Positions 18,855-44,250 of a stretch of DNA of 64,000 bases are shown here, piece by piece. Source of the DNA: a virus (taxonomy: Duplodnaviria > Heunggongvirae > Uroviricota > Caudoviricetes); IMG/VR virus record IMGVR_UViG_3300014208_000001, positions 1 through 64,000 of that record; one strand, written 5' to 3'. A program made the position numbers and the translations under genes. Position 1 is the stretch's first letter. Every line of letters starts with the position of its first letter. The notes below the pieces were generated by a model, which was given only the letters and a program-made list of their open reading frames with translations, was not told where the DNA came from and ran no database searches.

Positions 18855-18893
18855 CGTATCACTCCGCGTTATGTGTTGGATCGTCATAACCCA

Positions 18894-23680: not shown

Positions 23681-23717
23681 AAAACTGCTTTCGCCTCCAG
23701 CCGATCATCACCGACAA

Positions 23718-24134: not shown

Positions 24135-24502
24135 GATAACTCCTTAAAAATATCGTTTAACCACACTATGATATTATTTGTATTATACTCAACAAGTGAT
24201 ATATGTATAACTTTAGCATCATGTAATTTACTATCGCAGACACTACCATTTGGACGTGCACGACTCACATATTGATAGATCAAATGATTCGCTCTAGCAT
24301 ACGCCGCTTCCGACGCAGAATATCCTATTATATCCTTATCGCAAACAACAATACAAACATACTTATAAGTGATAACAACATTTATATTACGTTTATAGTT
24401 ATAATTACTTAATAGTATGCTCTCGTCATTCAAGTGTTCCAAATCAAAAGTTATCATACTTTTATTAATATCGTCTATAATAAGTGAAAATACTTCATTC
24501 AT
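24131..24502 (-). CDS. paralogue family member, short form
   Basis: MNEVFSLIIDDI...ISLVEY; AGGAG RBS. Confidence 0.7.
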   Translation of the reverse strand: MNEVFSLIIDDINKSMITFDLEHLNDESILLSNYNYKRNINVVITYKYVCIVVCDKDIIGYSASEAAYARANHLIYQYVSRARPNGSVCDSKLHDAKVIHISLVEYNTNNIIVWLNDIFKELS

Positions 24503-24586
24503 ACAAGCACTCCTATTTTGCGATACGGAAGGAGCCAAATGCACTTTCGCACATTTGGCTCCTTCACCACCCACCCCTACTCACCA

Positions 24587-25981
24587 CTACTCATTGATAT
24601 CCAACCGCACCACATGCCCCCAAGTCGGCTCACTCGTATCACGCACAGTAATACACGTGATAAAAGGAAAACTACACGGCTCATGCCAATTGCAATATCC
24701 ATCAGTCAGCATAATCTGACAATCATGAACCTTGCCATTGTCAATCAACCACTGCACAGGAGCAACCATATCAGTGCCCCCACGCCCATTCACCTTGAAA
24801 TTCTTCCACGCACCACGACGATACAACCCATAACCCTGAAACGCATGATCCCACTGCAGAATGTAAACTTTCGCCCTCGCACTAATCATATCAATCTCAG
24901 CAAAAAACTGCTGCAACTCCTTACCACCAACAGACCCAGAAGTATCCACAATCACATTCACAGTACTCGCAGCATGATGACTCACACCCGGCATACCAAA
25001 TGACTCATCACCCTCCAAGCGACGATTCACCCGATTATGAGTCTTCCGACTATTACCAACATGCCGACCAAGATACTGCCGAAGAATCGAACGCCACCGA
25101 ACAATCGGCTTACCCAACTTCTTCAACAACTCACTAATATGACCAGGTACATTCCCCTGACTCTTCTCAACAGCATCACTCACCATATCCTTCACACGCT
25201 GACGAGCCTCGTCAGGACTAGCATCACTCTGATCCCAAATCGAATGATCATCCAAACTCTTCCCACCATACTTATCATGGATAGGACACCCACCACCGCC
25301 ACCATCCTTCTTATTCTTCCCCTTCCCCTTACCCTTCCCATCCTGACCTTCATCGCCCTGATCACCCTGGCCCTTGCCAGAATTACCTTTATCATCATCC
25401 TCACCACCGCCGCCACTACCCTCACCATTGCACTTACACGTGCAACGCTGAGCTTTCATATCCTTAGTAATCTCATCATAATACTCCTCAGCACTCAACC
25501 GATCATTAAGATGCGGAGGACACCAAACAATATCACTCTTGAACGGAATAACCGGCTTATTACCAGAATCAGTCAACCCAATCTTCGGATTGTCACGCTT
25601 ACCATTCACAGCCATATCACAAGCAATATTAAACAACTTCGGATCACGAGTAGTGCCACGAATACAATGCAAACGGACAAGATGCTCAATCTCGTGCTGG
25701 ATGATAGCAACAAGCTCCTTCACCGTCATCTTCGAAACGAAAGGAGGATAATACAAACATTGCACACGAAGATCATTGAGGATACGAACCCCCATAGTTT
25801 TGCTATCTTCATCCTTAATCCAATCCATATTGGATGGGATCCACTCGGTGAGCATGCACATGTGACCATAAAATGGCTGCTCATTAACAAGCACACATCG
25901 TGCTCGAGTGAGTGAATCAACGACCTCCGCTGAAGTCCGATGAATTACCTGCCGATCAGCATCATTCGTAGCTACTGTCAT
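24587..25981 (-). CDS. DUF2201-type metallopeptidase-like/VWA domain protein
   Basis: HEIEH, NIACDMAVN, Gly/Asp linker, MIDAS DTSGS, GGTD, LTDG. Confidence 0.9.
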   Translation of the reverse strand: MTVATNDADRQVIHRTSAEVVDSLTRARCVLVNEQPFYGHMCMLTEWIPSNMDWIKDEDSKTMGVRILNDLRVQCLYYPPFVSKMTVKELVAIIQHEIEHLVRLHCIRGTTRDPKLFNIACDMAVNGKRDNPKIGLTDSGNKPVIPFKSDIVWCPPHLNDRLSAEEYYDEITKDMKAQRCTCKCNGEGSGGGGEDDDKGNSGKGQGDQGDEGQDGKGKGKGKNKKDGGGGGCPIHDKYGGKSLDDHSIWDQSDASPDEARQRVKDMVSDAVEKSQGNVPGHISELLKKLGKPIVRWRSILRQYLGRHVGNSRKTHNRVNRRLEGDESFGMPGVSHHAASTVNVIVDTSGSVGGKELQQFFAEIDMISARAKVYILQWDHAFQGYGLYRRGAWKNFKVNGRGGTDMVAPVQWLIDNGKVHDCQIMLTDGYCNWHEPCSFPFITCITVRDTSEPTWGHVVRLDINE

Positions 25982-26020
25982 TTTGAATCCTGCGATTAAG
26001 GGTGGGTGGTTGACTTAAAT

Positions 26021-26048
26021 CTATTGCCCGAAGCTAACTTTAGGTAAA
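26021..26048 (-). promoter_or_regulatory. promoter-like motif
   Basis: TTTACC-N14-GGCAATAG. Confidence 0.68.
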
Positions 26049-26132
26049 ATAAAACTCCCCCTATCATACTCGCCACGGCAACGGCATGAATACGACAGGG
26101 GGAGCCACACAGGACCGACCAACATCAAACCG

Positions 26133-27497
26133 CTAATTGATCTCGCGAGCACTCACAGACTGATTGAACACAATCTGCAACGTAGGACGCTCCGCAACCC
26201 ACTCCAAGAAACCCTTGGAAGCCCCACTGTCACGCCGAAGTTTCACCACACGAGCAGCCAACGCCGGATTCATCGCAATCGCCAACTTGTGCTGATCAGG
26301 AGCATTCGACGACTTCACCCCCTGCACCAACTGGCGAATGAACGCAATCGCCAAATCGTTATCGTTGCCAGAACTCCGCTTATTCACCAGAACTTCAGCG
26401 AAATCCAACGCAACCTTCGCGTGCTTCTCGTCATCCACCTTGCCAGTCAAGTAACTGCTGAGACCCCACATGAGACCAGCCATCTGCGACCGGCTCAACT
26501 CACGCAACTTCTTATCCCACTGCTTGACACCATCACGCATCAAATCAGTGACCTTCACCGGACAATCGTAATTGAGGTAGGCCGACGCCACATCAGAACC
26601 GAGCAGCCCAGCCAACACCAAACGCATGGCATCATCAGGGTTGCACACCTTCTGGATAGCGGCACGAGCCCCATTCTCCATCGCGATCTTGGCACGGACA
26701 GCAGAATCCCACGAACGCCGAGACGGTTGGATGACCGTATCGTTCTTCGCGTTGTTGTTACCGTCGAGGTACTTCAGATCGGACGAAGTGAATTCGATAG
26801 CAGCGGACGCATCCAAACCGTATCGCTTACTCATGAACTGAGTCCACTCGGCGAGAGTGGTTTCGCCGGCACTGAGCGTCATGTGGCAGAAGCGATCGAG
26901 GAGGGCGGCGTCGTTAAAGCCGTTGGTGATGTATCCCTCGTTGAAATTGCCCGCCGCACACACAGCCCATCCTTCGGGGAGTGCGTATCGACCGACTTTG
27001 CGGTCGAGCACCAGTTGGAAGATGGCTTGCAGCACGTCATCGGCACCGCGATTCACTTCATCGAGGAAGAGAATTCCGTGTTCGTGGCGGGGCTGCAGTT
27101 CGAGGAAGCACGCCGAGATTTTCGTGATGTGTCGCGGGGGGAGTTTCGCGGCGATACTGGTCCAGTCGATTTCGCCGGGTTTAGAATCCTTGGGGAGGAA
27201 TTCCTTGCACCGTTCAATCACCAGCTCTTCCACTTCCATGTCGGTGAGATCGCCGATTGGCATTTCAGCGGGAGGGCAGTAGTGCGTACGGCCATCTTCG
27301 CCGCGAGTCGGGAGGCCACGAATATCGACAGCTTCCAGTTGCGAGCACCGGAGATCGACGAATCCCATTCGGGATTGTTCGCACAGTTGCTTGATCAGAC
27401 TGGATTTGCCCAGTCCGTGGACACCCCAAATGAAGGGGGTGAGTTGGGCGTGCTTGCATAGCATCACCGCACCCTGAATCTCAGAAATCCGAGCCAT
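26133..27497 (-). CDS. MoxR-like AAA+ ATPase
   Basis: Walker A GVHGLGKS, Walker B LFLDEVNR, AAGN, ALLDRF, PSRRSW; adjacent to VWA gene. Confidence 0.92.
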   Translation of the reverse strand: MARISEIQGAVMLCKHAQLTPFIWGVHGLGKSSLIKQLCEQSRMGFVDLRCSQLEAVDIRGLPTRGEDGRTHYCPPAEMPIGDLTDMEVEELVIERCKEFLPKDSKPGEIDWTSIAAKLPPRHITKISACFLELQPRHEHGILFLDEVNRGADDVLQAIFQLVLDRKVGRYALPEGWAVCAAGNFNEGYITNGFNDAALLDRFCHMTLSAGETTLAEWTQFMSKRYGLDASAAIEFTSSDLKYLDGNNNAKNDTVIQPSRRSWDSAVRAKIAMENGARAAIQKVCNPDDAMRLVLAGLLGSDVASAYLNYDCPVKVTDLMRDGVKQWDKKLRELSRSQMAGLMWGLSSYLTGKVDDEKHAKVALDFAEVLVNKRSSGNDNDLAIAFIRQLVQGVKSSNAPDQHKLAIAMNPALAARVVKLRRDSGASKGFLEWVAERPTLQIVFNQSVSAREIN

Positions 27498-27540
27498 CGC
27501 AAAAACTCCTGTGTGTTAGAAACCCAAAACCGACCCACCC

Positions 27541-28728: not shown

Positions 28729-29136
28729 TTAGAAATTGTACCTCTTAATAATCTCCTCATTCGCATCAACAATCACATCAGGATTAACAGCAACCACTTC
28801 ATACAACGCACAATATCCAACACCATCAACCTTCCGATAATACTCAACACCATCACTTGTACGACCACGAGCAAACAACTTATCACCAATACTCACCACA
28901 CCACTATTAACATTATCAGCACCAACCTGAATTCCAACATCACCACGCATACCAACATCAGTCAAATTAGACCCATTAATCAACCTCAAACTAGCCAACC
29001 GCATAACACCATCAGGAGTCATCACCAACTCACCATACGTAACATCAACCAACCCAGCACGAATAGGCTTCACCACAACACTAGGGGCCTCACACCCACG
29101 ATGCTCACGAGCCTTATAAATTTTCAAACTCTTCAC
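28729..29136 (-). CDS. hypothetical protein
   Basis: GTG start with GGAGG RBS. Confidence 0.65.
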   Translation of the reverse strand: MKSLKIYKAREHRGCEAPSVVVKPIRAGLVDVTYGELVMTPDGVMRLASLRLINGSNLTDVGMRGDVGIQVGADNVNSGVVSIGDKLFARGRTSDGVEYYRKVDGVGYCALYEVVAVNPDVIVDANEEIIKRYNF

Positions 29137-29190
29137 AATATCACCTCCAAAACCTATTACAAAACTAACCCCTAAAGTAAACATTAACCC

Positions 29191-33052: not shown

Positions 33053-33670
33053 TTAAAATATCTCATCGTGATGGTTGATAATTGTAGCCCTTTTAATTAG
33101 GTGTATACTTGTTTCTGTGTGAGTGACTTTGGTAAATTACGCTAATACCATACATATTCTGATGTTCATTTATATATATGTACGGGCATACTCGATTTCC
33201 TGTCTGGAAATACATTGTTTCGATGGGGGTTTTTAAATACTTCGTAGTATACGTCTGAATATTTATAGTAGTATTTATATAATACACTTATATATTTTAT
33301 AACCATGCGTGTATATTATGCGATTTCCTCTCTGGAAACATCGAATACTATTGATATAATATTCAACTCGTTTGTATAGTATTGTATAGTGCTCGAAATG
33401 GGTCAGAGCGAGTTAGGTCCGTCGATTAGAGCGATTTGATGCGGTGGGAGAGCGTTTAGTATATATTCGGAAGCAAATTTACTTTATCGCTAATAGAGTG
33501 TGTGGTAGGTAGTTCTTCTTCTCTCTTCTTTATTTTTTATTATGTTTTTGTTATTTCTTTGGATATTGATGAAATTTTGTTTATTGGGCCTTGATGGGTC
33601 GCTCATGATGATAGATGGTTAAAAGTTAAATAAGATTATTTTGGTATTTTATTATGTTGGTGGTGTACTC
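33053..33670. other. putative replication origin region
   Basis: ~600-bp AT-rich gap without a credible ORF; at the skew switch; repeated CGATTTCCTSTCTGGAAA and AGAGCG. Confidence 0.5.
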
Positions 33671-33673
33671 TTG

Positions 33674-33886
33674 TTAGTATAGTGATAGTAGTTTTGTGTG
33701 TGCTTCTTTTATGTGGTGTTCTATGTTGGTGTAGTATTTTAGTGGTATGTTGGTGTAGTCTTTTAGTGGTATGTTGGTTATGTTTTGTGGTTGGTGTTTG
33801 TGGATTTGGAGTTTGGTGTGGTTTATGTATATGTCTATTTGGTGGGTTGGGTTTGTTGTGGGGGTTTTGTTTTTGATGTGGTACAT
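33674..33886 (-). pseudogene. truncated paralogue with internal 24-bp duplication
   Basis: IDIYINHTKLQI...TNIPLKDY-TNIPLKYY-TNIEHHIKE resembles the family C-terminus. Confidence 0.45.
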
Positions 33887-33896
33887 GGGTGGGTGT

Positions 33897-33924
33897 TTTA
33901 CGGGCGTTTGGTGTGTTGTAAAAG
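33897..33924 (+). promoter_or_regulatory. promoter-like motif heading the G/T block
   Basis: TTTACG-N14-TGTAAAAG; GTG start 7 nt later. Confidence 0.65.
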
Positions 33925-33930
33925 GGTTGG

Positions 33931-34275
33931 GTGAGGTTTTTTAGGAGTGTGAGTGGTTCGGTTGTGGTGTTGAGGGGTGATGAGTATTTTTATTTGAGTG
34001 GGTTTTTGTGTAAGTGGGATGCTGAGTTGGTTGGGTTGGTTGAGTTGGGGGTTTTGTGTGGGGTGGTGGTTGGTGATTTTGTTGGGTTGATGGATGAGGT
34101 TGTTGGTAAGGTTAATGGTGATTGGGTGATGGTTGGTGGTCGGTGTGGGGATGTTAGGTTGGTTGTGGATTGTGGTGGGGAGGGTGTGAGGTTTTGGAGG
34201 TATTGTGGTGGGGTTTGTGTTGGGTCTGGGTTTGTGGGGTGGGTTGATTTTGTGGGTGTTGGGGGTTTGTTGTGA
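33931..34275 (+). CDS. paralogue family member (extreme G/T bias)
   Basis: LGVLCGVVVGDF...WVDFVGVGGLL. Confidence 0.72.
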   Translation: MRFFRSVSGSVVVLRGDEYFYLSGFLCKWDAELVGLVELGVLCGVVVGDFVGLMDEVVGKVNGDWVMVGGRCGDVRLVVDCGGEGVRFWRYCGGVCVGSGFVGWVDFVGVGGLL

Positions 34276-34619
34276 GGTTTTATTATGATGATAATGGGTA
34301 TGTGGTGAGGTTGGTGGGGGATGATTATTTTTATTTGAATGGGGAGGTGGCTGGTGGGGTTGTGGGTGGGGTTGGGGATGTGTTTAGTGTGGTTGTGGGT
34401 GAGTTTGTTGGGTTGGTGGATGAGGTGTATTATGATGATTTTTATGTTAATGGTGATGGTTGTTATTTGAGTTTGCGTGGGGTTGTTGGTGGGGGTGTGT
34501 ATATTATGTGTGATTGTTCTCCTTTGGGTGGGGTTGTGACTGTTGTGGCTGTGGATGGTACGTCTAGGAGTTCTGGTTTTTTGTGGGTTGATTTTGTGGG
34601 TGTTGGGGGTTTGTTGTGA
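34272..34619 (+). CDS. paralogue family member (G/T)
   Basis: MRFYY...GDVFSVVVGEF...WVDFVGVGGLL. Confidence 0.75.
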   Translation: MRFYYDDNGYVVRLVGDDYFYLNGEVAGGVVGGVGDVFSVVVGEFVGLVDEVYYDDFYVNGDGCYLSLRGVVGGGVYIMCDCSPLGGVVTVVAVDGTSRSSGFLWVDFVGVGGLL

Positions 34620-35005
34620 GGTTTTATGTTAATGAGCGTATGTGTGTGGTGATGTTTGATGATGTTGTTGGTGATTATTTTTATTTGACTAATGAGTGGT
34701 GTGGGTATGAGTATGGTGATAGGCATAGGTTGGTTGAGTTGGGTGAGTTGTTTTCTTTGGTTGTTGGTGAGGTTTTGAGGTTGTCTGGTGGTGGTGTTGA
34801 GCATTATGTTATTGGTAGTTTGTGTGTTGATGGTGGTGTTTTGCGGGTTTGTGATGTTTCTAAGTTTAAGGTGGTGTTGTATACTAAGTGTAAGGTGTTT
34901 CGTGGTGTTAAGTGTATGTGTGATGGGGTTAGGATTTTGGTGAATGGTAGGTGGGGTGGTTTGGTTAGGTGGTGTGATTTTGTGAGTGTTGAGGGTTTAT
35001 TGTGA
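34616..35005 (+). CDS. paralogue family member (G/T)
   Basis: LGELFSLVVGEV...WGGLVRWCDFVSVEGLL. Confidence 0.75.
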   Translation: MRFYVNERMCVVMFDDVVGDYFYLTNEWCGYEYGDRHRLVELGELFSLVVGEVLRLSGGGVEHYVIGSLCVDGGVLRVCDVSKFKVVLYTKCKVFRGVKCMCDGVRILVNGRWGGLVRWCDFVSVEGLL

Positions 35006-35346
35006 GGGTTTATTATACTGAGTGGGGTAATTTGGTTAAGTTGGTTGGTGGGAAGTATTATTATTTTGGTGGGTTGGATGTTTGTGATGTGGATTTTGTT
35101 TGTGGTGAGGTTGAGAGTTTGTTTGTGGTGGTTGTGGGTGAGTTTGTTGAGTTGATGGATAGGGTTACTTATGGTGATCGTCATGGGTGTTTTGATGTGT
35201 ATGTGAGTGGGTTTTTGGGTGGTGTTGAGTATGCTGTTGCGTGTAATGATATTGGGGTGTTTGTGTCTAGGAATAGGCCGTTTGGGTGGAGTGATATTGG
35301 GTTTGTGAGGTGGGTTGATTTTGTTGGTGTTGGGGGTTTGTTGTGA
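35002..35346 (+). CDS. paralogue family member (G/T)
   Basis: ESLFVVVVGEF...WVDFVGVGGLL. Confidence 0.75.
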   Translation: MRVYYTEWGNLVKLVGGKYYYFGGLDVCDVDFVCGEVESLFVVVVGEFVELMDRVTYGDRHGCFDVYVSGFLGGVEYAVACNDIGVFVSRNRPFGWSDIGFVRWVDFVGVGGLL

Positions 35347-35684
35347 GGTATTATTCTATGTGTGGTACTATTGTTATGGTGAGGGGTGGTGTGTATTATT
35401 ATTTGAATGGTGAGTATTGTAGTATTGTTGGTGATGTTGGTGAGATTTGTGATGTTTATAGTTTGGTTATTGATGATTGTTTGGATCATTGTTCTAAGGT
35501 TGGTGGGCGTGTGTGTCAGGTGGTGTGTCAATATGGTGTGGTTATGGTGCATTGGGTTTATAATGGGATGTTCGTTGGAGTTAAGTGTGATAAGGTTGGT
35601 GTTTATGTTGTTAATGGGTGGGGTTGTCCGTGGGGTGGTTTGGTTAGGTGGTGTGATTATGTGAGTATTGAGGGTTTGTTGTGA
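35343..35684 (+). CDS. paralogue family member (G/T)
   Basis: MRYY...CDVYSLVIDDC...WCDYVSIEGLL. Confidence 0.75.
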   Translation: MRYYSMCGTIVMVRGGVYYYLNGEYCSIVGDVGEICDVYSLVIDDCLDHCSKVGGRVCQVVCQYGVVMVHWVYNGMFVGVKCDKVGVYVVNGWGCPWGGLVRWCDYVSIEGLL

Positions 35685-36031
35685 GGTATTATATTAGGAA
35701 TGGTTATAATGTTATTCTTTTTAAAAATGGGTATTATTATCGTTTGAATGGTGTGTGGTGTGGGTTGGATTATGTGGTTTTGCGTGATGCGGTTGTTTTG
35801 GGTGATGTTTATACTTTGGTTTTTGATGAGTTTTTGAGTATTGCTTGTGGTGCGTATGGGAGTGTTAATTATGATGATTCTGTTGATGTTTATGGTGATT
35901 TTGATGGGGTGGTGGTTGGTATTAAAGTTGATGATTTTGGGGTTCGTTTTGCTCGTGATTGTAGTATGGTGACTTGGTGGGGTGGTTTGGTTAGGTGGTG
36001 TGATTTTGTGAGCGTTGAGGGTTTGTTATGA
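35681..36031 (+). CDS. paralogue family member (G/T)
   Basis: MRYY...LGDVYTLVFDEF...WCDFVSVEGLL. Confidence 0.75.
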   Translation: MRYYIRNGYNVILFKNGYYYRLNGVWCGLDYVVLRDAVVLGDVYTLVFDEFLSIACGAYGSVNYDDSVDVYGDFDGVVVGIKVDDFGVRFARDCSMVTWWGGLVRWCDFVSVEGLL

Positions 36032-36381
36032 GGTTTTTTAGTACTTGTGGGCATGTTGTTTATTTGGTTGATGGTGAGTATTATTGGTTTGCTGGTGGGC
36101 GTTGTTCTGCTGCTGATATTTCTGAGTATGTTTTGACTGAGTTGAATGAGCTTTTTTCGTTGGTATGTTGTGATTTTGTTGGGTTGGTTAGTGATAGGTG
36201 GGATGGTAAGTTGTATAATGATTGGCCGTTTTTTCCGACGCAGACGTTGGTTTTGAAAGGTAATTTTGGTGTTATTGGTGTTAAGGTTTTGTGCAATAGT
36301 GATGGGGTGGTGATTAGGACTGGTGATGGTGAGTGTGCTTTTTTGTGGAGTGAGTTTAGTGGTTTGCGTGGGTTATTGTGA
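36028..36381 (+). CDS. paralogue family member (G/T)
   Basis: LNELFSLVCCDF...WSEFSGLRGLL. Confidence 0.75.
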   Translation: MRFFSTCGHVVYLVDGEYYWFAGGRCSAADISEYVLTELNELFSLVCCDFVGLVSDRWDGKLYNDWPFFPTQTLVLKGNFGVIGVKVLCNSDGVVIRTGDGECAFLWSEFSGLRGLL

Positions 36382-36713
36382 AGTATATTAAGACTTTTGA
36401 TGGGTGTGTTGGTTTTGTGAGTGGTGGTGAGTATATTATATATGATTGTGGTAGTCAGAGGTATGAGGATGTTGGTTCATTTGAGTTTATTGGTGATTTT
36501 TATGATGTGTTTGTTGGTGATTTTGTGGGGTTTGTTGATGATGTTAGGTTTATTAGGATTTTGCGTGGTGGGCAGTTGATGTTAGGTGGGTTTGTTGGTG
36601 ATATGAATGTTATTGTTATGGTTGGTGATGATATTAAGGTGACTTTTGGTGGTGATAGTTGGGTTATTTGTTTTAGTGATTATGGAGGGTTTTGTGAAGT
36701 TTGCGCTACTTAA
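36378..36713 (+). CDS. paralogue family member (G/T)
   Basis: GDFYDVFVGDF...ICFSDY. Confidence 0.72.
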   Translation: MKYIKTFDGCVGFVSGGEYIIYDCGSQRYEDVGSFEFIGDFYDVFVGDFVGFVDDVRFIRILRGGQLMLGGFVGDMNVIVMVGDDIKVTFGGDSWVICFSDYGGFCEVCAT

Positions 36714-37068
36714 TAATGATAGTGTTGTTGAGGTGCGGGGTGGTAATATGTTGTTTTGGTTGCATGATCCTTTTAGGGGTAAGTTTATAGATGGTGGTGG
36801 TTTTATTTATGATTTTGTTGATAATGAGTTGTTTGAGTTGATATTGAATGATTTTATGGATTTTGTCGGTGATGGTGGGTTATGTTCTGATATTCGTATT
36901 GATGATGGTGTTTTGAAGGTTTGTGGTAAGATTTCTGGTAAGTGGACTAAGGTGTGTGTTGATGGTGGTGTAATTTCTGTTTCTAAGTGTTGGACGTCTG
37001 ATGGTGTTACTAGTGATGTTCGTTTTTGTAAGGTTGGTGAGTTTGTGTGTTTGAGGGGTTTGTTATGA
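36694..37068 (+). CDS. paralogue family member (G/T)
   Basis: GTG start after GGAGG; NELFELILNDF...GEFVCLRGLL. Confidence 0.72.
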   Translation: MKFALLNNDSVVEVRGGNMLFWLHDPFRGKFIDGGGFIYDFVDNELFELILNDFMDFVGDGGLCSDIRIDDGVLKVCGKISGKWTKVCVDGGVISVSKCWTSDGVTSDVRFCKVGEFVCLRGLL

Positions 37069-37442
37069 TTGATATGGTTATTGTTGATTTGTTTAAGAGG
37101 AAGTTGATTGGTACGTGTCCTGATCTTTGGGTTTCTGCTGAGATTTATAAAGGGGTGCCGATTAGTACTAAACCTATTGTATCTATATTTATTGCTAATG
37201 CTTCTGGTGGTGCGTGGAGTTGTATTGGTGATTGTGTTATTTATGATAGTAGTATTGTTGCTGAGTTGAAAACTATTGGTGGTATTGAGACTAGTTTTAA
37301 TGATCGTGATAAGGTTTCGTTTGATTTGGGTGATATGGATGTTTTGGATAGGTTGTTTGAGTATGTGGTGTGTCGGGCTCGTGAGTGTGATGGGGCGTTT
37401 AAACGTCTTCGTCGTAAGTCATGGGAGTCGCGTTATAAATGA
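37065..37442 (+). CDS. hypothetical protein, possibly divergent family member
   Basis: ATGA-coupled; VSFDLGDM. Confidence 0.6.
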   Translation: MIDMVIVDLFKRKLIGTCPDLWVSAEIYKGVPISTKPIVSIFIANASGGAWSCIGDCVIYDSSIVAELKTIGGIETSFNDRDKVSFDLGDMDVLDRLFEYVVCRARECDGAFKRLRRKSWESRYK

Positions 37443-37857
37443 AGTCGGTTATGGTTGTGTAGTCTGATAGTAGTATTTTGTTTGTTTTGCGGCATATTCC
37501 GTTATTATAGGTTGGTATCATTAGTTCTATTATTTTTTCTGTGATTGTTAGTGTTATTTTGTTGTTGTGTAGCTCTCCTGCTATGATTAGTGATTCTTCT
37601 ATGTTTAGTGATGTGGCGGTGGGGGTTCCGCGTATTCGTCTTTCTATTTTGGCTAGTCTGTTAATTAGTATTTCGGTGTCTGTTAGTATGATTTGGTGGA
37701 GTGGGTTGGTTATTGGCTGGGTGGTGTGGTTTGTATCGAATAGTCTGTGTCCGTCTAGTAAGTTGAGTGGGTTTATTGTGACTATGTAGTTGTAGTAACT
37801 GTTTGATTGTGTTACGTTTCCGTATCGTACTGTGGCGTTTATTATTATATGGTACAT
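37399..37857 (-). CDS. paralogue family member (coding strand C/A-biased)
   Basis: TNPLHQIILTDT...ILLSDYTTI. Confidence 0.72.
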   Translation of the reverse strand: MYHIIINATVRYGNVTQSNSYYNYIVTINPLNLLDGHRLFDTNHTTQPITNPLHQIILTDTEILINRLAKIERRIRGTPTATSLNIEESLIIAGELHNNKITLTITEKIIELMIPTYNNGICRKTNKILLSDYTTITDFIYNATPMTYDEDV

Positions 37858-38216
37858 ATGTGGTCCTTTAGTGTTGTGAATTCTGATAGGGGTATTTTTA
37901 GTATGTCTGGGGTAATTTGGGATTCGAATACTATTTGTGTGTCTGTTATCGATATGTATAGTCGTCCTAGCATTGGTAATTGATGATATGTGCCGCTTAT
38001 TCTTAGGTATGATAATAATAGTGCGGTTGGTTCTATGAGTGTTTGTTTTGCTTCGTTTAGTAGGAGTTCGTGGAGCGGGTTATCGATTGGTTTGGTTTGG
38101 TGCATTAATCCATTGTGTATTATTGTTCCGTTGAATTTTTTATGTGGGTTTAGTGTTATTATGTGGCCTTGTAAATTGGCTTGGTATACTTTATTGGTTA
38201 TTACGTGATATTTCAT
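37845..38216 (-). CDS. paralogue family member
   Basis: MKYH...NPLHELLLNEA...IPLSEF. Confidence 0.72.
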   Translation of the reverse strand: MKYHVITNKVYQANLQGHIITLNPHKKFNGTIIHNGLMHQTKPIDNPLHELLLNEAKQTLIEPTALLLSYLRISGTYHQLPMLGRLYISITDTQIVFESQITPDILKIPLSEFTTLKDHICTI

Positions 38217-38583
38217 TTATTTCTTTCAGGTGTTTTTCTATTGTTGTGTATGTGTGGTATGGTATTTTGTAGGTGATATCGGATGTTGACATTGATAGTG
38301 AAGTTTCGTTTAATCGTATAGATACTATATTATTATTGTATATTCCTGTTATGTGGCACCCGGCTCGTATCATTGCTGATGTTATTGTTATTGTGTTTTC
38401 TATATCGTTTATAATTAGTGAGTATATGCTGTCGTTGTCTATCTCTTCAAAATTATAATGTTTATTTAGTGGTACATTTGATAATAGTCTTAGTGGGTTT
38501 AATTTTACTATGTATCCTATTTTATCGTTTGCGTATTCTACGCCATTTTCAGTGTATGATATGTTTGTTATTTTGTAGTACAT
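38191..38583 (-). CDS. paralogue family member
   Basis: SIYSLIINDI...IPYHTYTTI. Confidence 0.72.
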   Translation of the reverse strand: MYYKITNISYTENGVEYANDKIGYIVKLNPLRLLSNVPLNKHYNFEEIDNDSIYSLIINDIENTITITSAMIRAGCHITGIYNNNIVSIRLNETSLSMSTSDITYKIPYHTYTTIEKHLKEINEISRNNQ

Positions 38584-39005
38584 TGATATGCTTCGGTTAA
38601 GTGTTTGGTGATTGAGGTGTATTCTGAGTACTTGATTTCGAATATTTTGTGGCGGATGTGTATAATGATGCGAGCTTGTGTTAAAAATATTAATAAACTG
38701 TGTATTACGTTATCGATTTTGTATTTTGCTTGTATTCTGATATCATCATCATAATTTATACCTGGTATGATGCTTGTTTGTGCGTCAAAGTCTAATATTG
38801 TAGCTGATATAATTGTTATTTCTTTTTCTTTTAATATATCTGATATAACAATGGTGTATAAATCATTGTTTAATGGTCTGTAAGTATGATATGCTAAGCA
38901 GACAACATCTCCTGATAATAATTTGCTTGATTCTAACTGTATTATACGTCCATATAGAGAGCTGGTAACTGTGGAACTTTCAATAGTTGTTATTATACAA
39001 AACAT
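38568..39005 (-). CDS. paralogue family member
   Basis: NDLYTIVISDI...IKYSEY. Confidence 0.72.
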   Translation of the reverse strand: MFCIITTIESSTVTSSLYGRIIQLESSKLLSGDVVCLAYHTYRPLNNDLYTIVISDILKEKEITIISATILDFDAQTSIIPGINYDDDIRIQAKYKIDNVIHSLLIFLTQARIIIHIRHKIFEIKYSEYTSITKHLTEAYQCTTK

Positions 39006-39010
39006 ATTAT

Positions 39011-39448
39011 TTATTGCTTTGGTTGATACGTTGGTATAATTTTTTGAATTGATTGTTCTAATATTTGTTTATCATATTCTATTAAGTTTATTGTGTGTTG
39101 TACGCCTGTGCTCTTGGCTGCATAAGCTAATTTATGTGAGTGACTTGTATCTGTTGAGTTCATATATATTCTTTTGTCTGTGATTGTGATTACAAGTCGT
39201 ATTACGTCTATCGTACTTATTATTTGCAATTGACGTTGATTGTCGAATACTTCGGCGTATATTATTTTTAATAATTTTGAGATATCTTGCAATAATAAAA
39301 TGTGTATTGGGTTTTTCAATGGGTATATTTTTAGTACTGGTGATGTTTCTATATGTGTTCCATTTAGTAATACTATGAAATCATTTGATTTTGTTGCTAT
39401 TCTTCCGTCGTATCTGTTAATTACGTGGTCTTCGATTATGTAGTACAT
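39011..39448 (-). CDS. paralogue family member
   Basis: NPIHILLLQDI...INLIEY. Confidence 0.72.
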   Translation of the reverse strand: MYYIIEDHVINRYDGRIATKSNDFIVLLNGTHIETSPVLKIYPLKNPIHILLLQDISKLLKIIYAEVFDNQRQLQIISTIDVIRLVITITDKRIYMNSTDTSHSHKLAYAAKSTGVQHTINLIEYDKQILEQSIQKIIPTYQPKQ

Positions 39449-39849
39449 TTTATGATTTCGATCAACCTTTCTAATGTGTAATCGGTGTAATGCAATGCTG
39501 TGTAATTATTATTTGTGTTTATTTCTAAAAATGTTGGACCTATTACTATTGTTGTTGGTAAAAAAGTTGGCAGCGTATCACACGGTGTTGTGTCTAGTAA
39601 TAATCTTGGTGTTTTAACCATTAAGTAGTGTGCTGATACAATTTTGACGATTTGTGATACATCATTGATAATTGTATTTTCTAGATCATTTAATTTTCGT
39701 GCTTCGACTGTTTTTATAGGTACTGATATGTCTCCATTGAAGCTAACGTAATTTTCTCCTATTTGTGTTACTATTTCATCATATAGTACGTATACTGAAT
39801 TGTTTGTACTTTGTATTGGCCTTTTTTGTAGTTCGTAGTATATTTTCAT
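39436..39849 (-). CDS. paralogue family member
   Basis: LNDLENTIINDV...LHYTDY. Confidence 0.72.
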   Translation of the reverse strand: MKIYYELQKRPIQSTNNSVYVLYDEIVTQIGENYVSFNGDISVPIKTVEARKLNDLENTIINDVSQIVKIVSAHYLMVKTPRLLLDTTPCDTLPTFLPTTIVIGPTFLEINTNNNYTALHYTDYTLERLIEIIKCTT

Positions 39850-40199
39850 ATTATATTTTTTAATTTTTGTGGGGTGTATTCTGATAATCGTATTAGTTTT
39901 TTAAATGTTAAATCAACTCTTATTACAATTTCTGAGTTTGTAATACAGATGTGTAATCGTGTTGATTTATTGTTGCCGGTTAGGACGATTGAATTAGTAT
40001 TATCGATTGCGTATCCGTTACAGACAGTGTATAGTTTAATGACGTCATTTAATATTACTTGATATACATCACTTAATATAATTAAGTGTTTTGTGTCTGG
40101 GGGTAGTAAGTATGGCGATAATGTATAAATGTCATTGTTTAATTCGTAAACAATTTGATTATTGTATAGTTTGTTGTCTTTGATTACGTAATAGATCAT
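39846..40199 (-). CDS. paralogue family member
   Basis: LSDVYQVILNDV...IRLSEY. Confidence 0.75.
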   Translation of the reverse strand: MIYYVIKDNKLYNNQIVYELNNDIYTLSPYLLPPDTKHLIILSDVYQVILNDVIKLYTVCNGYAIDNTNSIVLTGNNKSTRLHICITNSEIVIRVDLTFKKLIRLSEYTPQKLKNII

Positions 40200-40546
40200 A
40201 AATTTGTATACTCTAATAGTGGTATTGTTTCATTTACGTATTTGTCTAATTTATATGATAATGGTGATGCTTTTGATATTTTTATTTCTTTATCTGTTAC
40301 TACTATAGTCATGTGAATATATTCATCAGAAGTACCATAAATATGTAATCTGTTATTGTTTAATGTGGCGCATCTTATACTCATTGCTTCTAGTGCGTCG
40401 TTTATGATTATGTTATATATTATCGGTACTTTTATCATTTTTGATTTTGTTGCTATTCCTCGGGTTGTTCCGTGTATGGTTTTTGTGAAATAATTTTGTA
40501 TGTATACTATTTCTGATGTTGGCGAATAGATATAATGGTCTCTCAT
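40196..40546 (-). CDS. paralogue family member
   Basis: PIIYNIIINDA...YKLDKY. Confidence 0.72.
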   Translation of the reverse strand: MRDHYIYSPTSEIVYIQNYFTKTIHGTTRGIATKSKMIKVPIIYNIIINDALEAMSIRCATLNNNRLHIYGTSDEYIHMTIVVTDKEIKISKASPLSYKLDKYVNETIPLLEYTNL

Positions 40547-40932
40547 AGTTTGCGTTTGCATGCTTTTTTGAGTGTTTCGTATGAATAATTAATTAGTTTT
40601 ATGCGGTTTTCGTATGTTTCAGTTGGTGATAATCTTGATATTATGATGGTATCTATTAGGATTGTTATTGATATTAATTTGGGAGCTGATGCGAGTATAT
40701 TGATGCTTTCGATACTTTCATTTTGTAGAAGGGGTAAATTTGCGCCGGTGGCTGACTCTATTGATTTAGATATTTTATGTATATCATTTAATATGATTTG
40801 GTTTATGTTGTTTAATTTGATTAATGGGATAGTTTGTATACCACCTGATAATGATAATGCTCCGCACATATTATAGTAGGACCCATTTACTTTGGTCACT
40901 ATTGTTCTGTCATGTAAATAGTATGTTTTCAT
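40543..40932 (-). CDS. paralogue family member
   Basis: MKTYY...LNNINQIILNDI...IKLINY. Confidence 0.72.
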   Translation of the reverse strand: MKTYYLHDRTIVTKVNGSYYNMCGALSLSGGIQTIPLIKLNNINQIILNDIHKISKSIESATGANLPLLQNESIESINILASAPKLISITILIDTIIISRLSPTETYENRIKLINYSYETLKKACKRKL

Positions 40933-41348
40933 AATTTGATGTATGATAATCCTAAATTTTTGATTACTTCTTTGATTGATGGTAATTTTTCATAGTCAGT
41001 CATATTTATTTTATATATATAAGTGTAGCTATATGGATTGAGTATTATATTTATTCCTGATGGGAGCATGTTTACTTTTATTTCTCCTGTGAGTCCTGGG
41101 TACGTACCATAAATTGATAAATTGTTTGTATTATGGCAGTATGTTCCTGATTTCACATGCATTATTTTATGGGCGTCGAATATTATTATTTGGCAGAATG
41201 CGTCTAATAACACGATATTAGGTGAATTTATGTTTATTTTGCTTAGTGTTATTTTATTGAGTGTTTTGTATTTGGTTCGTTTGCGGTATACAATATGTGT
41301 ATTGTTCTCATTTGTTTCGTCATTTATGTAATAATAGTTTGTGGTCAT
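40929..41348 (-). CDS. paralogue family member
   Basis: LDAFCQIIIFDA...INMTDY. Confidence 0.72.
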   Translation of the reverse strand: MTTNYYYINDETNENNTHIVYRKRTKYKTLNKITLSKININSPNIVLLDAFCQIIIFDAHKIMHVKSGTYCHNTNNLSIYGTYPGLTGEIKVNMLPSGINIILNPYSYTYIYKINMTDYEKLPSIKEVIKNLGLSYIKL

Positions 41349-41384: not shown

Positions 41385-41390
41385 GTGACT

Positions 41391-41714
41391 ATGGAACGCA
41401 GAGTATATTATGAAACGACTTTTGGTGAAGTTGTTATAAAGTGTGGTATCTTTCATTATACGCTTAGTGATAGATGGTGTATTGATCCTATTGAAGGTGA
41501 AGTAAATGAGATTTATACTGTTTTGATTGATGATATTGTTGAATATTTGAGCAGTATTTTATCTGTTTATATTGATCATGATGATCGATTAATGTTTGAA
41601 GGACGTAAGGATAATGAAGTGGTTCATGGTAATGTTGATGATTCAATTTTTACCATGACAGTTGGCCAGAAACAAATTACTGTGACACTTGATCAATACG
41701 CGGGACTCAAATGA
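41391..41714 (+). CDS. paralogue family member
   Basis: RVYY...VNEIYTVLIDDI...VTLDQY. Confidence 0.75.
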   Translation: MERRVYYETTFGEVVIKCGIFHYTLSDRWCIDPIEGEVNEIYTVLIDDIVEYLSSILSVYIDHDDRLMFEGRKDNEVVHGNVDDSIFTMTVGQKQITVTLDQYAGLK

Positions 41715-42127
41715 TTATTTTCACGAGAGATACTTATTTTACTAATATTCAACCATGGATTTATAATGGTAAAATATTAACCAATCCTGTGCGAGATTCT
41801 GATATTATTTTGGGCGAGATACACCAGATTATTCTTAATTATATATTTACGTTTTGTTTAAAGCATGGTTTGGATTGTAATAGCCAATTAGTTCATTGTT
41901 TTGATTCTGCTGATGTAATTGATATTGGTGTTCATAGCGTAAATGCGGATGATTCTGTTGCTCTCATTTTTAATTTACAAATTACTAATATTGGTATTTT
42001 ACTGTATGTTGATTCTTATCGTACTGGGGTTGATATTGATTACTCTCCAACTTTTGCTGAGTTAGATTTTGATATGCTCACTGGGCATTTGGAATCATGT
42101 TTAGATGATTGTGATGTGGGCACATGA
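41711..42127 (+). CDS. paralogue family member
   Basis: LGEIHQIILNYI...PTFAEL. Confidence 0.68.
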   Translation: MIIFTRDTYFTNIQPWIYNGKILTNPVRDSDIILGEIHQIILNYIFTFCLKHGLDCNSQLVHCFDSADVIDIGVHSVNADDSVALIFNLQITNIGILLYVDSYRTGVDIDYSPTFAELDFDMLTGHLESCLDDCDVGT

Positions 42128-42456
42128 AATATTATTATGATAACGATAATCATATTTGTTATGCGATTTCTTTTGATGGTGAAACAATAAAATATAAGCG
42201 GATTTTTGAATATGCTGATTATGAGATTTATTGTGTATATGATATAGAAGATGTATTATGTGCGATAATTGATGATTTCGTTGATTATTGTGATCATGTT
42301 ACGCATAGTTATGCATGCGAAAATTCTATATGTATAAATGGTATTAAGGATAAGAAAATGGTCAATGTGCATGTTAAAGGTGGCAAAATATCATATTTTA
42401 TCAATTCTAAAAAAACAATGCACGTTACTTTTATTGAGTACTGTGGGTTTAAATGA
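42124..42456 (+). CDS. paralogue family member
   Basis: MKYYY...EDVLCAIIDDF...VTFIEY. Confidence 0.75.
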   Translation: MKYYYDNDNHICYAISFDGETIKYKRIFEYADYEIYCVYDIEDVLCAIIDDFVDYCDHVTHSYACENSICINGIKDKKMVNVHVKGGKISYFINSKKTMHVTFIEYCGFK

Positions 42457-42833
42457 ACAAGTTAGTTCAAATTATAAGAAGTATTAATGGCGATACTTAT
42501 AATGGTATTGTTGCTGAAAATATTTATGGCCGTCTTTATATTAATGATAATTTTATAGGTAATGATACTGATTTTGTTACTCAGAAATTAAATGATGTGT
42601 ATAGTTCTATAACCATTGAATGTATTGATTTGATGGATATATATAGTATTGATATTTTTCATCATTATAAGAATAATTATAATGAAATACAAGAAAGATT
42701 GTGCATTCATGGGTCTTTTGAGCATCAAGATGTGCATGTGTGGGCTGATTATGAGTCTGTGACCATATTTTATCGTAATAAAACAGTGGCGATTCCTTTG
42801 ATTGACTTCGCTAATATAAAAGATTATATATGA
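42453..42833 (+). CDS. paralogue family member
   Basis: LNDVYSSITIEC...IPLIDF. Confidence 0.72.
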   Translation: MNKLVQIIRSINGDTYNGIVAENIYGRLYINDNFIGNDTDFVTQKLNDVYSSITIECIDLMDIYSIDIFHHYKNNYNEIQERLCIHGSFEHQDVHVWADYESVTIFYRNKTVAIPLIDFANIKDYI

Positions 42834-43213
42834 AATATTATTACGATCCAGATATTAGGATCAATAATGTGTATAAAATTAATGATAATGGAAGATTCGT
42901 ATGTGTTACTGATAGTGATGTGTTTGCTTCGTCCGAGTCGCTTATAGAAGAAGCGTCTGAATTATATTCTTTGTTGATTGGTGATTTGTCTAATGTAGTT
43001 ATGATAAGTAATTTATCGATGTTTGTTGAATGTTTAATTATAAATGCTTATTTGTCTAAATCAAGAATTGATATAATTATAAATGAATTGAATATAGGAT
43101 ATATGATTAATGATGATACTACGACGTCATATATTAATTTGTGCGATTATACCGGTTTTGATTTTCTTAGAATAGCTGTTAAAAATAAAGAAAGAAGGGA
43201 AAGGGTATTTTAA
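42830..43213 (+). CDS. paralogue family member
   Basis: MKYYY...SELYSLLIGDL...INLCDYTGF. Confidence 0.75.
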   Translation: MKYYYDPDIRINNVYKINDNGRFVCVTDSDVFASSESLIEEASELYSLLIGDLSNVVMISNLSMFVECLIINAYLSKSRIDIIINELNIGYMINDDTTTSYINLCDYTGFDFLRIAVKNKERRERVF

Positions 43214-43533
43214 TGGCTAATTGGTATTTTAGCGATACACATATGAATGTAATTAGTGGTGTTGTGCAAGATATCACACAGTGTAAGAGTGTCGCTATAG
43301 AATCTATTCCTGACATGTATGCTGTTATTCTTGATGAGTTTGCGTCATTGTGGGTCATCGATTATGCTGGTTTATTTAAACCGAACAATTCACCTGAATT
43401 TTTGAGAGCATGGGGCGGCAGTAATATTTTAGAGATTCATGCTAGTGAGATTTTTTTATATGCTCATAGTATGACATTTCGTAGTAGGTTGATTGATTTT
43501 GTTAGTATTAGAAATATGATTGGTAATAAATGA
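43213..43533 (+). CDS. paralogue family member
   Basis: IPDMYAVILDEF...SRLIDF. Confidence 0.72.
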   Translation: MANWYFSDTHMNVISGVVQDITQCKSVAIESIPDMYAVILDEFASLWVIDYAGLFKPNNSPEFLRAWGGSNILEIHASEIFLYAHSMTFRSRLIDFVSIRNMIGNK

Positions 43534-43922
43534 TTTATTACGCTTATAAAAATGATGTTATTTATTATGTTGATGGTGTTTGTGTTAGTTTAAGTGGTGT
43601 AGAATATGATAGTGATCCAAAAGATGATCCGATTTATAATATTGTGGAAATTCAGGAGATTTTTTGTTGTTTGATTGATGAGTTTAGGGAATTGTTTCAA
43701 ATTAGTGATGCGTTGTCTGGGCGGATGATGTCTGGTACGCGTATTATTACGGTTTATTATAATAATACATCGTTAAGATTGTACCCAGATAGGTTCAGAT
43801 TGACTATATATGGGGTTTTGAAACATTTTAGTGAGGGTGGGTTACTAAATCAGAACAGTGAGATTACAGTGTTTTATCATGATTATACTAATTTAAAAGA
43901 ACATTTATCGCAATTATACTAA
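43530..43922 (+). CDS. paralogue family member
   Basis: MIYY...QEIFCCLIDEF...VFYHDYTNL. Confidence 0.75.
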   Translation: MIYYAYKNDVIYYVDGVCVSLSGVEYDSDPKDDPIYNIVEIQEIFCCLIDEFRELFQISDALSGRMMSGTRIITVYYNNTSLRLYPDRFRLTIYGVLKHFSEGGLLNQNSEITVFYHDYTNLKEHLSQLY

Positions 43923-44167: not shown

Positions 44168-44250
44168 GGGGAGGTGACAGAGTGGTCTAATGTACAGTTT
44201 TTACTGTGTACGGTTTACCGTATCGGGGGTTCGAATCCCTCCCTCTTCCG
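44168..44250 (+). tRNA. tRNA-Ser-like gene lacking an anticodon (pseudo-tRNA or mimic)
   Basis: Ser-type D arm, long variable arm UACGG-UUUA-CCGUA and T arm; anticodon arm reduced to CAGU-UUUU-ACUG. Confidence 0.75.

Follow-up and report, generated by a model that had tools for sequence, protein, structure and literature searches.

The window analysed here, a stretch of 64,000 nucleotides (positions 1 to 64,000 of record IMGVR_UViG_3300014208_000001), belongs to the genome of an uncultured phage (~356 kb; 355,825 bp). It contains two blocks of related small genes, one on the + strand written largely in G and T and one on the - strand written largely in A and C (Table 1). Minus-strand A/C-type genes flank the G/T block on both sides, including a truncated relic which matched zone genes of a relative, contig L005, in blastn (E 4e-6). 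The zone contains the most extreme 2-kb stretch of the genome, with G+T of.834 against a mean of.489 (sd.058). Measured in 500-nt steps, the + strand at 34001-34500 consisted of A.11, C.01, G.47 and T.41, and GC content climbed from.30 to.45 at the skew peak, which is expected under transitions. A second extreme zone was found at 341.5-350 kb, in which the genes read the opposite way to the G/T block. Genome-wide skew did not reveal replichores centred on 33 kb or any other replichore pattern.

Table 1. Features of the skewed zone, in positions of the window
Feature	Coordinates	Strand	Basis or remark
Switch region, polarity flip	33053..33500	.	Non-coding, ordinary composition (500-nt steps)
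G/T-rich leader	33501..33930	.	G+T.81
Truncated relic of an A/C-type family gene, C-terminal half only	33674-33886	-	Family HMM, model positions 84-121
G/T-coded family gene 1 (ORF flagged by the sequence-only reading)	33931..34275	+	GTG start; third positions 100% G/T
Eight more G/T-coded family genes	34272..37068	+	Family HMM matches, codon-phase test, junction sequences
G/T genes 2-5	34272-34619, 34616-35005, 35002-35346, 35343-35684	+	
G/T genes 6-9	35681-36031, 36028-36381, 36378-36713, 36646/36693-37068	+	
131-aa ORF at convergent junction of the two blocks	37047..37442	+	Gene in ENA assembly annotation
Four A/C-coded family genes (cited by the sequence-only reading)	37399-37857, 37845-38216, 38191-38583, 38568-39005	-	All ATG starts
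Six further A/C-coded family genes, same block	39011..41348	-	Family HMM
Seven family genes, tail of the gradient	41385..43922	+	Third positions 68-77% G/T

Three assemblies and a separate Logan run all contained the zone. The ENA assembly differed from the record by one SNP and a 24-nt indel over 20 kb, and the Logan contig was identical across 34957-36005. The leader contains a 24-nt tandem repeat (33722-33769), of which the assemblies differ by one copy. A sequencing or assembly artefact could be rejected on the basis of these independent recoveries, the analogous zones in three other datasets, and the codon phasing of the residual bases. Comparison with a 98%-identical strain at 30.6-32 kb revealed 28 differences, 23 transitions and 5 transversions, which were directionally symmetric and unpolarised. 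Neither a blastn search of 33-40 kb against phage records nor an Rfam scan of 32-38 kb returned a match. Two copies of a stem-loop motif, CGATTTCC..TCTGGAAA, occur in the switch region (33193-33210 and 33321-33338); a similar repeat copy containing TATAAT comes after the first, while the second lies directly upstream of a rightward sigma-70-like promoter match.

The product of the first G/T gene (114 aa) consisted of V 22.8, G 21.1, L 9.6, F 7.0, C 5.3 and W 3.5%, together 69%, with I, T, H, Q and P all at zero. These residue counts agree with the sequence-only reading, which had described an ORF without P, T, Q, H or I dominated by V/G/L/F/C. Given that these five residues make up ~25% of compositionally normal paralogues, their complete absence from 114 residues has a probability of ~6e-15, and it follows directly from base composition. 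The protein shares 32% identity with that of gene 5 (35343-35684). At the first seven junctions of the block, neighbouring genes overlap by 4 nt (GTGA/ATGA), and a GAGGG/GGGGG Shine-Dalgarno-like run stands ahead of each overlap. A GTG start was found in seven of the nine G/T genes, compared with ATG in 10/10 genes of the A/C block. G+T content in the G/T block was 79, 69 and 98% at codon positions 1, 2 and 3, leaving A+C at 21, 31 and 1.9%. Thus, A and C were kept tenfold better at positions 1 and 2 than at position 3, in one specific frame, and this retention indicates from sequence that the G/T-block ORFs are real genes under purifying selection. An HMM built from normal paralogues alone matched three of the eight genes downstream of gene 1 (E 4e-5 to 9e-4), and the iterated family HMM matched these genes at E 1e-6 to 6e-17, while antisense ORFs of the block gave no family HMM match even at E 10. 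The 131-aa ORF at the convergent junction was absent from the family HMM match lists, and no inverted repeats flanking the G/T block could be found.

Products of the first four A/C-coded genes (550 aa in total) showed the reverse composition: I 16.0, T 11.3, N 8.0, H 4.0, Q 2.9 and P 3.3%, with V, G, F, C and W at 2.9, 3.1, 1.8, 1.1 and 0%, respectively. The described richness of these opposite-strand neighbours in I/T/N/H/Q/P could therefore be confirmed, as the six residues account for 45% of the total; third positions on the coding strand were 11-26% G/T. The family as a whole comprises roughly 80 copies encoding proteins of ~110-150 aa. The main cluster of this hyper-divergent family coincides with the zone, and ~20 members are located in unskewed DNA. 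Regression of amino-acid composition on skew, the check proposed by the sequence-only reading, gave r=.82 between third-position G+T and V+G+F+C+W, and r=-.87 for K+N+T+Q+H+P, over 87 paralogues. Between the blocks, V+G+F+C+W changed from 41-60% to 7-14%, a four- to six-fold difference, and the change in K+N+T+Q+H+P was about as large. The data thus support that the two amino-acid alphabets, which hardly overlap, follow the strand bias. Searches with eight members found nothing in Pfam at E.1 or better, and the PHROG rows that they returned were all weak (E.008 or worse). A family search of 1.84 billion representative proteins returned 41 matches, 32 of which were ORFs of this genome itself; the small-protein family is nearly private to this phage lineage.

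Homology between the two groups was evaluated by alignment and profile comparison. In a MAFFT alignment of 35 paralogues, LGVLCGVVVGDF and TNPLHQIILTDT share columns 106-117, and WVDF and LSDY share columns 238-241, so that both motif pairs of the helix mapping claimed earlier fall into matching columns. The hhalign comparison of the G/T profile with the normal-paralogue profile was significant (E 5.2e-9 over 108 columns), as was that of the A/C profile (E 5.6e-12). The direct G/T to A/C comparison was not significant (E 0.24), though its register was right. Judged by these profiles, the two groups are homologous, as had been proposed, and their homology rests on the bridge through compositionally normal paralogues. 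Where both groups occupy the same column, the G/T residue was the transition image of the A/C residue in 35.6% of pairs compared to 22.4% in column shuffles (z 9.3, 0/1000 shuffles).

AlphaFold models were made from separate, group-only alignments. The G/T model (35343-35684) reached a pLDDT of 82.7, and the A/C model (39846-40199) 70.9 overall, with 73-95 over residues 41-117 and a poorly predicted N-terminal stretch of 39 residues. In the predicted architecture, a beta hairpin region at the N-terminus is followed by one long helix, four or five strands and a short helix at the C-terminus, and the helix-strands-helix order is common to both models. When 48,161 PDB chains were compared, 23 of the top 50 chains were common to both, and the six best matches of the G/T model were all within the top 15 of the A/C model. 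The earlier proposal that one fold tolerates two very different compositions is supported at the level of predicted models by this shared core and these shared matches, and selection appears, from the models, to have kept the fold across both amino-acid alphabets. A core of this kind may also occur in PDB 3cxj, an uncharacterised Methanothermobacter protein, which the A/C model matched with Z 8.9 (73 residues, rmsd 2.2) and the G/T model with Z 5.6 (66 residues, rmsd 2.2); the comparison tool describes such Z values as common among unrelated small domains. Similar small alpha/beta domains include the Mediator Med17 C-terminal domain, the T4 MotA C-terminal domain and type III chaperones. Sequence identity of 3cxj and these domains to the family models is just 3-11%, and no function can be deduced from them. 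Foldseek against the PDB gave nothing at E.001 or better for either model; a polo-box-like resemblance of the A/C model in that search was weak, not significant, and was set aside. Shape-based and feature-based searches of the ESM Atlas revealed no informative cluster.

Along the + strand, third-position A/(A+G) was 0.00 at 33.9 kb and rose smoothly to about.6 at 43.9 kb (slope.071 per kb, r.92, p 5e-11), while C/(C+T) remained at or below.01 up to 37 kb. Both ratios were continuous at 37.2 and 41.35 kb, where gene orientation switches, and the + strand bias was unbroken through 4 kb of minus-strand genes. Since the values are continuous across changes in gene orientation, the bias is a property of the physical strand of DNA. 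Non-family genes inside the zone, for example 28729-29184, were equally affected. The edges of the bias are abrupt, at about 33.5 kb and at about 44.2 kb, the latter at a tRNA-Ser gene and a NADAR gene, and its polarity flips at about 33.1-33.5 kb. Left of the switch no monotonic gradient could be observed; considering this together with the second zone at 341.5-350 kb, a single simple origin is not a full explanation.

An equivalent zone with the same switch and polarity was present in three distantly related phage contigs, L005, L006 and L007, with flank protein identities of 38-43%. These relatives were recovered from protein collections only; scans of viral contigs and metagenome contigs found none. 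Their family genes lie on the A/C-rich strand, oriented opposite to the G/T block, and the most extreme of them are 98-99% A/C at third positions. G+T by codon position in the three contigs was 26-31, 31-34 and 6-8%, corresponding to 92-94% A+C at position 3. A non-family orthologue within the zone, L006:1186-1533, had K+N+T+Q+H+P of.48 compared to.28 for a copy outside the zone. The stem-loop motif was absent from the three relatives, no conserved motif or non-coding element was seen at their switch, and no homologue of their boundary gene was found in this genome. G/T-type members were found only in this phage. Matches of the ATPase in Asteriusvirus and RaK2-like jumbo phages reached only 22-25% identity, and the phage A4 neighbourhood was not syntenic.

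Taken together, the most probable reading, to which we assign roughly three chances in four, is that these are homologous real genes whose alphabet is set by a transition pressure tied to the physical strand, whose fold is held by selection, and whose G/T block probably derives from an inverted or inserted sub-array, the pressure presumably arising from deamination of single-stranded DNA. Under this reading, C to T and A to G changes would act on the + strand right of the switch at ~33.1-33.5 kb and the same changes on the - strand left of it, so that + genes are driven into G/T codons (V, G, F, C, W, L) and - genes into A/C codons (I, T, N, H, Q, P, K). Synonymous sites would be saturated, and replacement sites shifted to the limit set by purifying selection. 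Core positions would retain residues of similar character (I to V, T to V, N or K to G, Y to F), and the fold could therefore survive. The most likely source would be deamination of C and A during a single-stranded phase of one strand, with an exposure time that becomes shorter the farther a site lies from a fixed start point, by analogy with the gradient of mitochondrial strand displacement. The G/T block was probably a sub-array inverted or inserted in an ancestral minus-strand array and then duplicated in tandem. The minus-strand A/C-type flanks and the opposite orientation in three relatives imply that orientation changed during the evolution of the zone. That part of the earlier suggestion on block inversion holds, while a useful widening of sequence space could not be supported; the data are consistent with a passive mutation pressure that selection resists.

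A source in transcription rather than replication is unlikely. Here, strong rightward transcription from ~33.25-33.36 kb would form R-loops that expose the non-template + strand to deamination. Promoter-like matches (10/12) are indeed located there, ~120-200 nt upstream of the sudden onset of G/T-richness, and the most extreme block in this phage is transcribed rightward. However, the promoter count does not exceed that in shuffled sequence (12 vs 8.6, sd 3.2), the stem-loop motif is not conserved, and the bias persists through the minus-strand genes. Moreover, the extreme-zone genes are reversed in the three relatives and in the 341.5-350 kb zone, where their own transcription predicts the opposite skew. 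G-enrichment would further stabilise an R-loop, and an R-loop-primed origin is conceivable.

About equally doubtful is the proposal that a jumbo-phage clade keeps a position-anchored, strand-specific hypermutation zone beside a conserved landmark and exploits block inversion to diversify its 80-member family. Resident genes of any kind would then be recoded into near-binary G/T or A/C codon alphabets, with an unusually long-lived single-stranded replication intermediate or an unrecognised DNA-editing activity as the source. Still less probable is an evolved diversification device, in which position-anchored hypermutation with occasional block inversion is kept for exploring two alphabets. This was the inference of the sequence-only reading, and an arms race with host defences would be a possible use. 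Conservation of the zone and its polarity in four divergent phages, its coincidence with the main cluster of the hyper-divergent family, the variable gene orientation between phages and the relic beside the G/T block would suit such a device. Against it, non-family genes are hit equally, ~20 family members lie in unskewed DNA, and the alphabet is narrowed rather than widened (effective amino acids 13.9 and 15.5 vs 17.2). The zone is the same in two other assemblies, which gives no sign of rapid ongoing change. The complete genome lacks a reverse transcriptase (PF00078), no MafB19-type deaminase was found in it, and the sole deaminase-like ORF found (90058-90345) carries an ordinary-looking dCMP deaminase domain. 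Diversity-generating retroelements of phages likewise alter the nucleotides of a protein family locally and in a set direction, but they make adenine-specific changes in one variable region and possess a template/variable repeat pair and a reverse transcriptase, both of which are absent here, while C to T and A to G changes here cover all sites of 10 kb, including non-family genes and non-coding DNA. The idea that the G/T-block ORFs are non-functional, belonging to a non-coding element or a decaying gene array whose frames are open by chance, stops being rare in A-poor DNA, was already disfavoured and is very improbable: long ORFs do occur in several frames on both strands and no other phage has G/T-type members, but the frame-specific A/C retention, the regular overlaps with their Shine-Dalgarno-like runs, the full-length profile homology, the confident structure model and the antisense ORFs devoid of a family match all argue for genes.

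Composition driven by strand bias is also seen on the leading versus lagging strands of bacteria. In mitochondria, comparison of homologous proteins has revealed that strand bias shapes amino-acid composition (Min & Hickey 2007, PMC2779903). As there, C, V, F, G and W (GT-rich codons) shift against Q, T, P, H, N and K (CA-rich) in the phage, and the shift tracks GC and AT skew at synonymous sites; the skew is strongest at third positions, and the opposite GT and CA shifts occur between homologous proteins. The mitochondrial effect is ~twofold between orthologues across phyla, whereas the phage genes are paralogues a few kb apart in one genome with synonymous sites 98-100% saturated. Mitochondria also display a gradient of single-strand exposure, and inversion of the control region reverses their skew (Fonseca et al. 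2014, PMC4182315). Saturated C to T, A to G graded with distance, abrupt changes at fixed points, and a physical-strand bias by which reorientation flips gene composition are shared with the phage zone. Unlike the mitochondrial gradient, which covers a whole small genome, the phage zone is local, ~10 kb of a 356-kb dsDNA phage, with a second zone and a non-monotonic left side. The shaping of protein composition by strand bias is thus known, and the phage presents an unusually extreme instance of it, whose amplitude and local, conserved phage setting appear to be new.

The locus can be regarded as a natural experiment on the limit to which nucleotide bias can push one protein fold: homologous domains of ~115 residues are encoded by 80-88% G/T in one block and by ~80% A/C overall at the same locus in relatives, with in-frame signs of selection in both. 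Such matched sequence sets would be of use for studying the foldability of reduced alphabets and for benchmarking homology and structure predictors at extreme composition. In practice, genes in such zones escape gene callers and profile searches or are called wrongly; spurious tiny genes were called in L006. The gradient marks a fixed point at ~33.3 kb where one strand is apparently exposed for an unusually long time, and this point offers a handle for testing how an uncultured lineage of jumbo phages replicates.

The sequence-only reading had proposed that homologous small proteins on opposite strands bear mirror-image amino-acid alphabets set by strand bias. Composition analysis agreed with this. 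The first ORF of the G/T block (33931-34275) lacked P, T, Q, H and I altogether, and V/G/L/F/C/W made up 69% of it; the four - strand genes at 37399-39005 were rich in I/T/N/H/Q/P (45%), with V/G/F/C/W accounting for only 9%. Local base composition is the cause of these alphabets. Nowhere else in the genome was composition as extreme as on the + strand at 33.5-37 kb (A.11-.18, C.01-.05, G.32-.47, T.41-.49), where G+T reached.834 over 2 kb (genome mean.489, sd.058). Among 87 paralogues, G+T at third codon positions correlated with V+G+F+C+W (r.82) and inversely with K+N+T+Q+H+P (r -.87). Predicted mRNA folding energy within 33931-41348 was -13.9 kcal/mol per 100 nt for G/T genes, -9.3 for A/C genes and -19.4 for paralogues of normal composition, and so weakened with the skew; near-binary alphabets allow few base pairs.

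Features of the strand-biased zone and its surroundings (window positions; G000 entries are positions in the full genome)
Feature	Coordinates	Strand	Remark
GC-rich islands	16000-18900; 23000-27500; G000 350000-355800		48-66% GC
Non-coding polarity switch	33053-33500
Stem-loop motif copy	33193-33210		followed by a TATAAT-bearing repeat copy
Stem-loop motif copy	33321-33338		immediately precedes a rightward TATAAT promoter match
Truncated A/C-type family gene	33674-33886	-	between switch and G/T block
24-nt tandem repeat	33722-33769		inside the truncated gene
G/T block, family genes	33931-37068	+
A/C block, family genes	~37399-41348	-
tRNA-Ser, anticodon ACT (ARAGORN)	44168-44249		far edge of the gradient
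dCMP/cytidine-deaminase-domain ORF	G000:C1:90058-90345	-	150 aa, 29.7 bits
Second extreme strand-bias zone	G000:C1:341500-350000		outside the window

Multiple frames were open in the G/T block; stops are rare in A-poor DNA, therefore open frames alone do not prove genes. In the family-matching frames, A+C amounted to 21%, 31% and only 1.9% at the first, second and third codon positions, respectively. Relative to normal paralogues, A was retained approximately tenfold better at replacement than at synonymous sites, as predicted by purifying selection on the protein. Antisense ORFs, in which codon position 1 would be the most saturated site, gave no hit to the family HMM at thresholds as loose as E 10. 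The genes were tightly packed, with GTGA/ATGA start-stop overlaps and a GAGGG/GGGGG run before each. The G/T-block ORFs are genes. GTG was the start codon in seven of nine, compared with ATG in all ten A/C-block genes, and this excess is itself a trace of A to G pressure. Among the AGY serine codons of the block, AGT predominated (AGT 26, AGC 1).

An HMM built from normal-composition members only (41-51 kb) matched three G/T genes (E 4e-5 to 9e-4) and most A/C genes (E 2e-10 to 5e-3), and its iteration revealed approximately 80 paralogues across the genome. Profile-profile comparison with the normal group gave E 5.2e-9 for the G/T group (probability 96%, 108 columns) and E 5.6e-12 for the A/C group. 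The direct G/T versus A/C comparison was not significant (E 0.24), with the alignment in the correct register; the alphabets overlap so little that only the normal-paralogue bridge reveals the homology. Both motif pairs matched between the groups by the sequence-only reading fell into the same MAFFT columns. In 35.6% of same-column pairs, the G/T residue was the A to G or C to T product of the A/C residue; column shuffles gave 22.4% (z 9.3; 0/1000 shuffles reached the observed value). Common A/C-to-G/T pairs were I/V, T/V, N/G, K/G and H/C; Y became F, and the invariant aspartate was retained.

AlphaFold2 models were produced from group-only alignments, so that neither could borrow signal from its counterpart. 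In the model of G/T member 35343-35684 (pLDDT 82.7), three N-terminal strands and one short strand preceded helix 37-53, after which came four strands and a short C-terminal helix. The A/C member 39846-40199 (pLDDT 70.9) was poor at residues 1-39 and reached 73-95 at 41-117, where helix 44-56, five strands and helix 110-116 followed one another. Among 48,161 PDB representatives, 23 chains were common to both top-50 lists, including 3cxj_A, 7emf_Q, 4h62_Q, 2plg_B, 5jlt_A and 5d16_A (G/T model Z 5.2-5.7, A/C model Z 5.9-8.9). The like element order and common chains of these predicted structures support the proposal that one fold spans both compositions. None of the chain matches allowed a functional assignment, and Pfam, PHROGs, Foldseek and ESM Atlas returned nothing for the small proteins.

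At third codon positions of the + strand, A/(A+G) rose steadily from 0.00-0.02 at 33.9-35.3 kb to approximately.6 at 41-44 kb (.071 per kb, r.92, p 5e-11), and C/(C+T) remained at or below.01 to 37 kb and.13 to 44 kb. Both curves were unbroken at the gene-orientation changes at 37.2 and 41.35 kb and returned abruptly to baseline at 44.2 kb. Left of approximately 33 kb, the polarity was opposite and of intermediate strength, and genes of both strands had a common physical-strand bias. The bias is a property of the physical strand, independent of gene orientation. GC climbed from.30 to.45 at the skew peak, consistent with A to G and C to T transitions but not with transversions. Genes outside the family were also biased: an in-zone orthologue in L006, a contig of a distant relative, had 48% K+N+T+Q+H+P compared with 28% in the out-of-zone copy of this phage. 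In the second extreme zone, A and C dominated the + strand, with G+T falling to.20 at 349 kb, the sharp edge at 350.0 kb abutted a GC-rich island, and genes of both strands, including short family-like ORFs, had a common physical-strand bias.

The family was nearly private, with 41 matches among 1.84 billion representative proteins, 32 of them ORFs of this genome. Three relatives' contigs from other datasets (L005, L006, L007) carried a flank protein 38-43% identical, along with NADAR, AAA and VWA genes. The switch recurred in all three with unchanged polarity towards the flank, and each had an extreme zone with G+T of.13-.26 (500-nt windows). Their family genes lay on the A/C-rich strand, and A/C made up 98-99% of third positions in the most extreme ones. 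K+N+T+Q+H+P rose to 51-61%, V+G+F+C+W dropped to 2-7%, and the in-frame codon-position signature mirrored that of the G/T block. The equivalent locus in relatives is thus the fullest mirror image of the block; no G/T-coded family members were found outside this phage. In L006:1-1600, within its extreme A/C zone, public gene calls were tiny - strand ORFs (33-67 aa) and lacked the + strand family genes of 84-115 aa, indicating that extreme skew defeats routine gene calling.

The zone carries a strand-specific, position-anchored transition bias that saturates synonymous sites, is graded with distance and is conserved in divergent relatives. Its most likely source would be deamination of C and A on a strand left single-stranded, with an exposure time that would shrink with distance from ~33.5 kb. 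The pattern matches the mitochondrial gradient as described in PMC4182315 (section 4), where C to T saturates, A to G is graded and origins form abrupt edges. The direction of the polarity switch is that of an origin rather than of a terminus. The non-monotonic left side and the second sharp-edged zone speak against a simple origin, as does the genome-wide skew, which revealed no replichores centred on the switch. Promoter-like sites a short way upstream of bias onset suggest a transcription or R-loop source, but the way genes are oriented in the relatives, in the 37.4-41.3 kb block and in the 341.5-350 kb zone contradicts it. The complete genome has no reverse transcriptase (PF00078), which excludes a retroelement source.

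Two family searches found no DNA deaminase candidate; the sole deaminase-domain ORF had no link to the zone and probably serves nucleotide metabolism. No ongoing hypermutation was visible: over 20 kb, the differences in another assembly amounted to one SNP and one repeat unit, and 1 kb of the G/T block was identical in a contig from a separate run. The stem-loop motif CGATTTCC(T/C)(G/C)TCTGGAAA occurred in two copies spaced 128 nt apart, which could act as operators or promoters where the polarity flips; it was not found in the relatives.

With the truncated gene on its left, the G/T block is bracketed by - strand A/C-type genes, which points to an inversion or insertion into an ancestral - strand array. 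Tandem expansion would then have given the present block, since members were 23-41% identical to 35343-35684 and junctions were near-identical. The same phage's ENA assembly had one copy fewer of the 24-nt repeat, the sole indel in 20 kb. The further suggestion that inversion usefully widens sequence space was unsupported: effective amino acids numbered 13.9 and 15.5 against 17.2 for normal members, so each alphabet is narrower than normal.

A 123-bp terminal repeat suggests that the 355,825-bp record (34% GC), whose initial 64 kb form the window, is a circular assembly. It encodes tRNAs, a Mom-like protein, a NADAR protein and an AAA ATPase with a VWA partner, the ATPase being only 22-25% identical to those of Asteriusvirus and RaK2-like jumbo phages. 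GC-rich islands, with a helicase and an AAA/VWA pair as cargo, break up the AT-rich skewed DNA and may be younger acquisitions still short of compositional equilibrium.

Phage-directed literature searches found no earlier report of such a zone. In mitochondria, strand bias shifts exactly the same two amino-acid classes, with approximately twofold differences between mammalian and flatworm orthologues (Min and Hickey, PMC2779903), and control-region inversion flips the bias (PMC4182315). Here, in contrast, saturation is near-total with four- to six-fold shifts, the proteins are paralogues a few kb apart, and the zone is a conserved local feature of a jumbo-phage lineage; this amplitude, scale and setting appear to be new.
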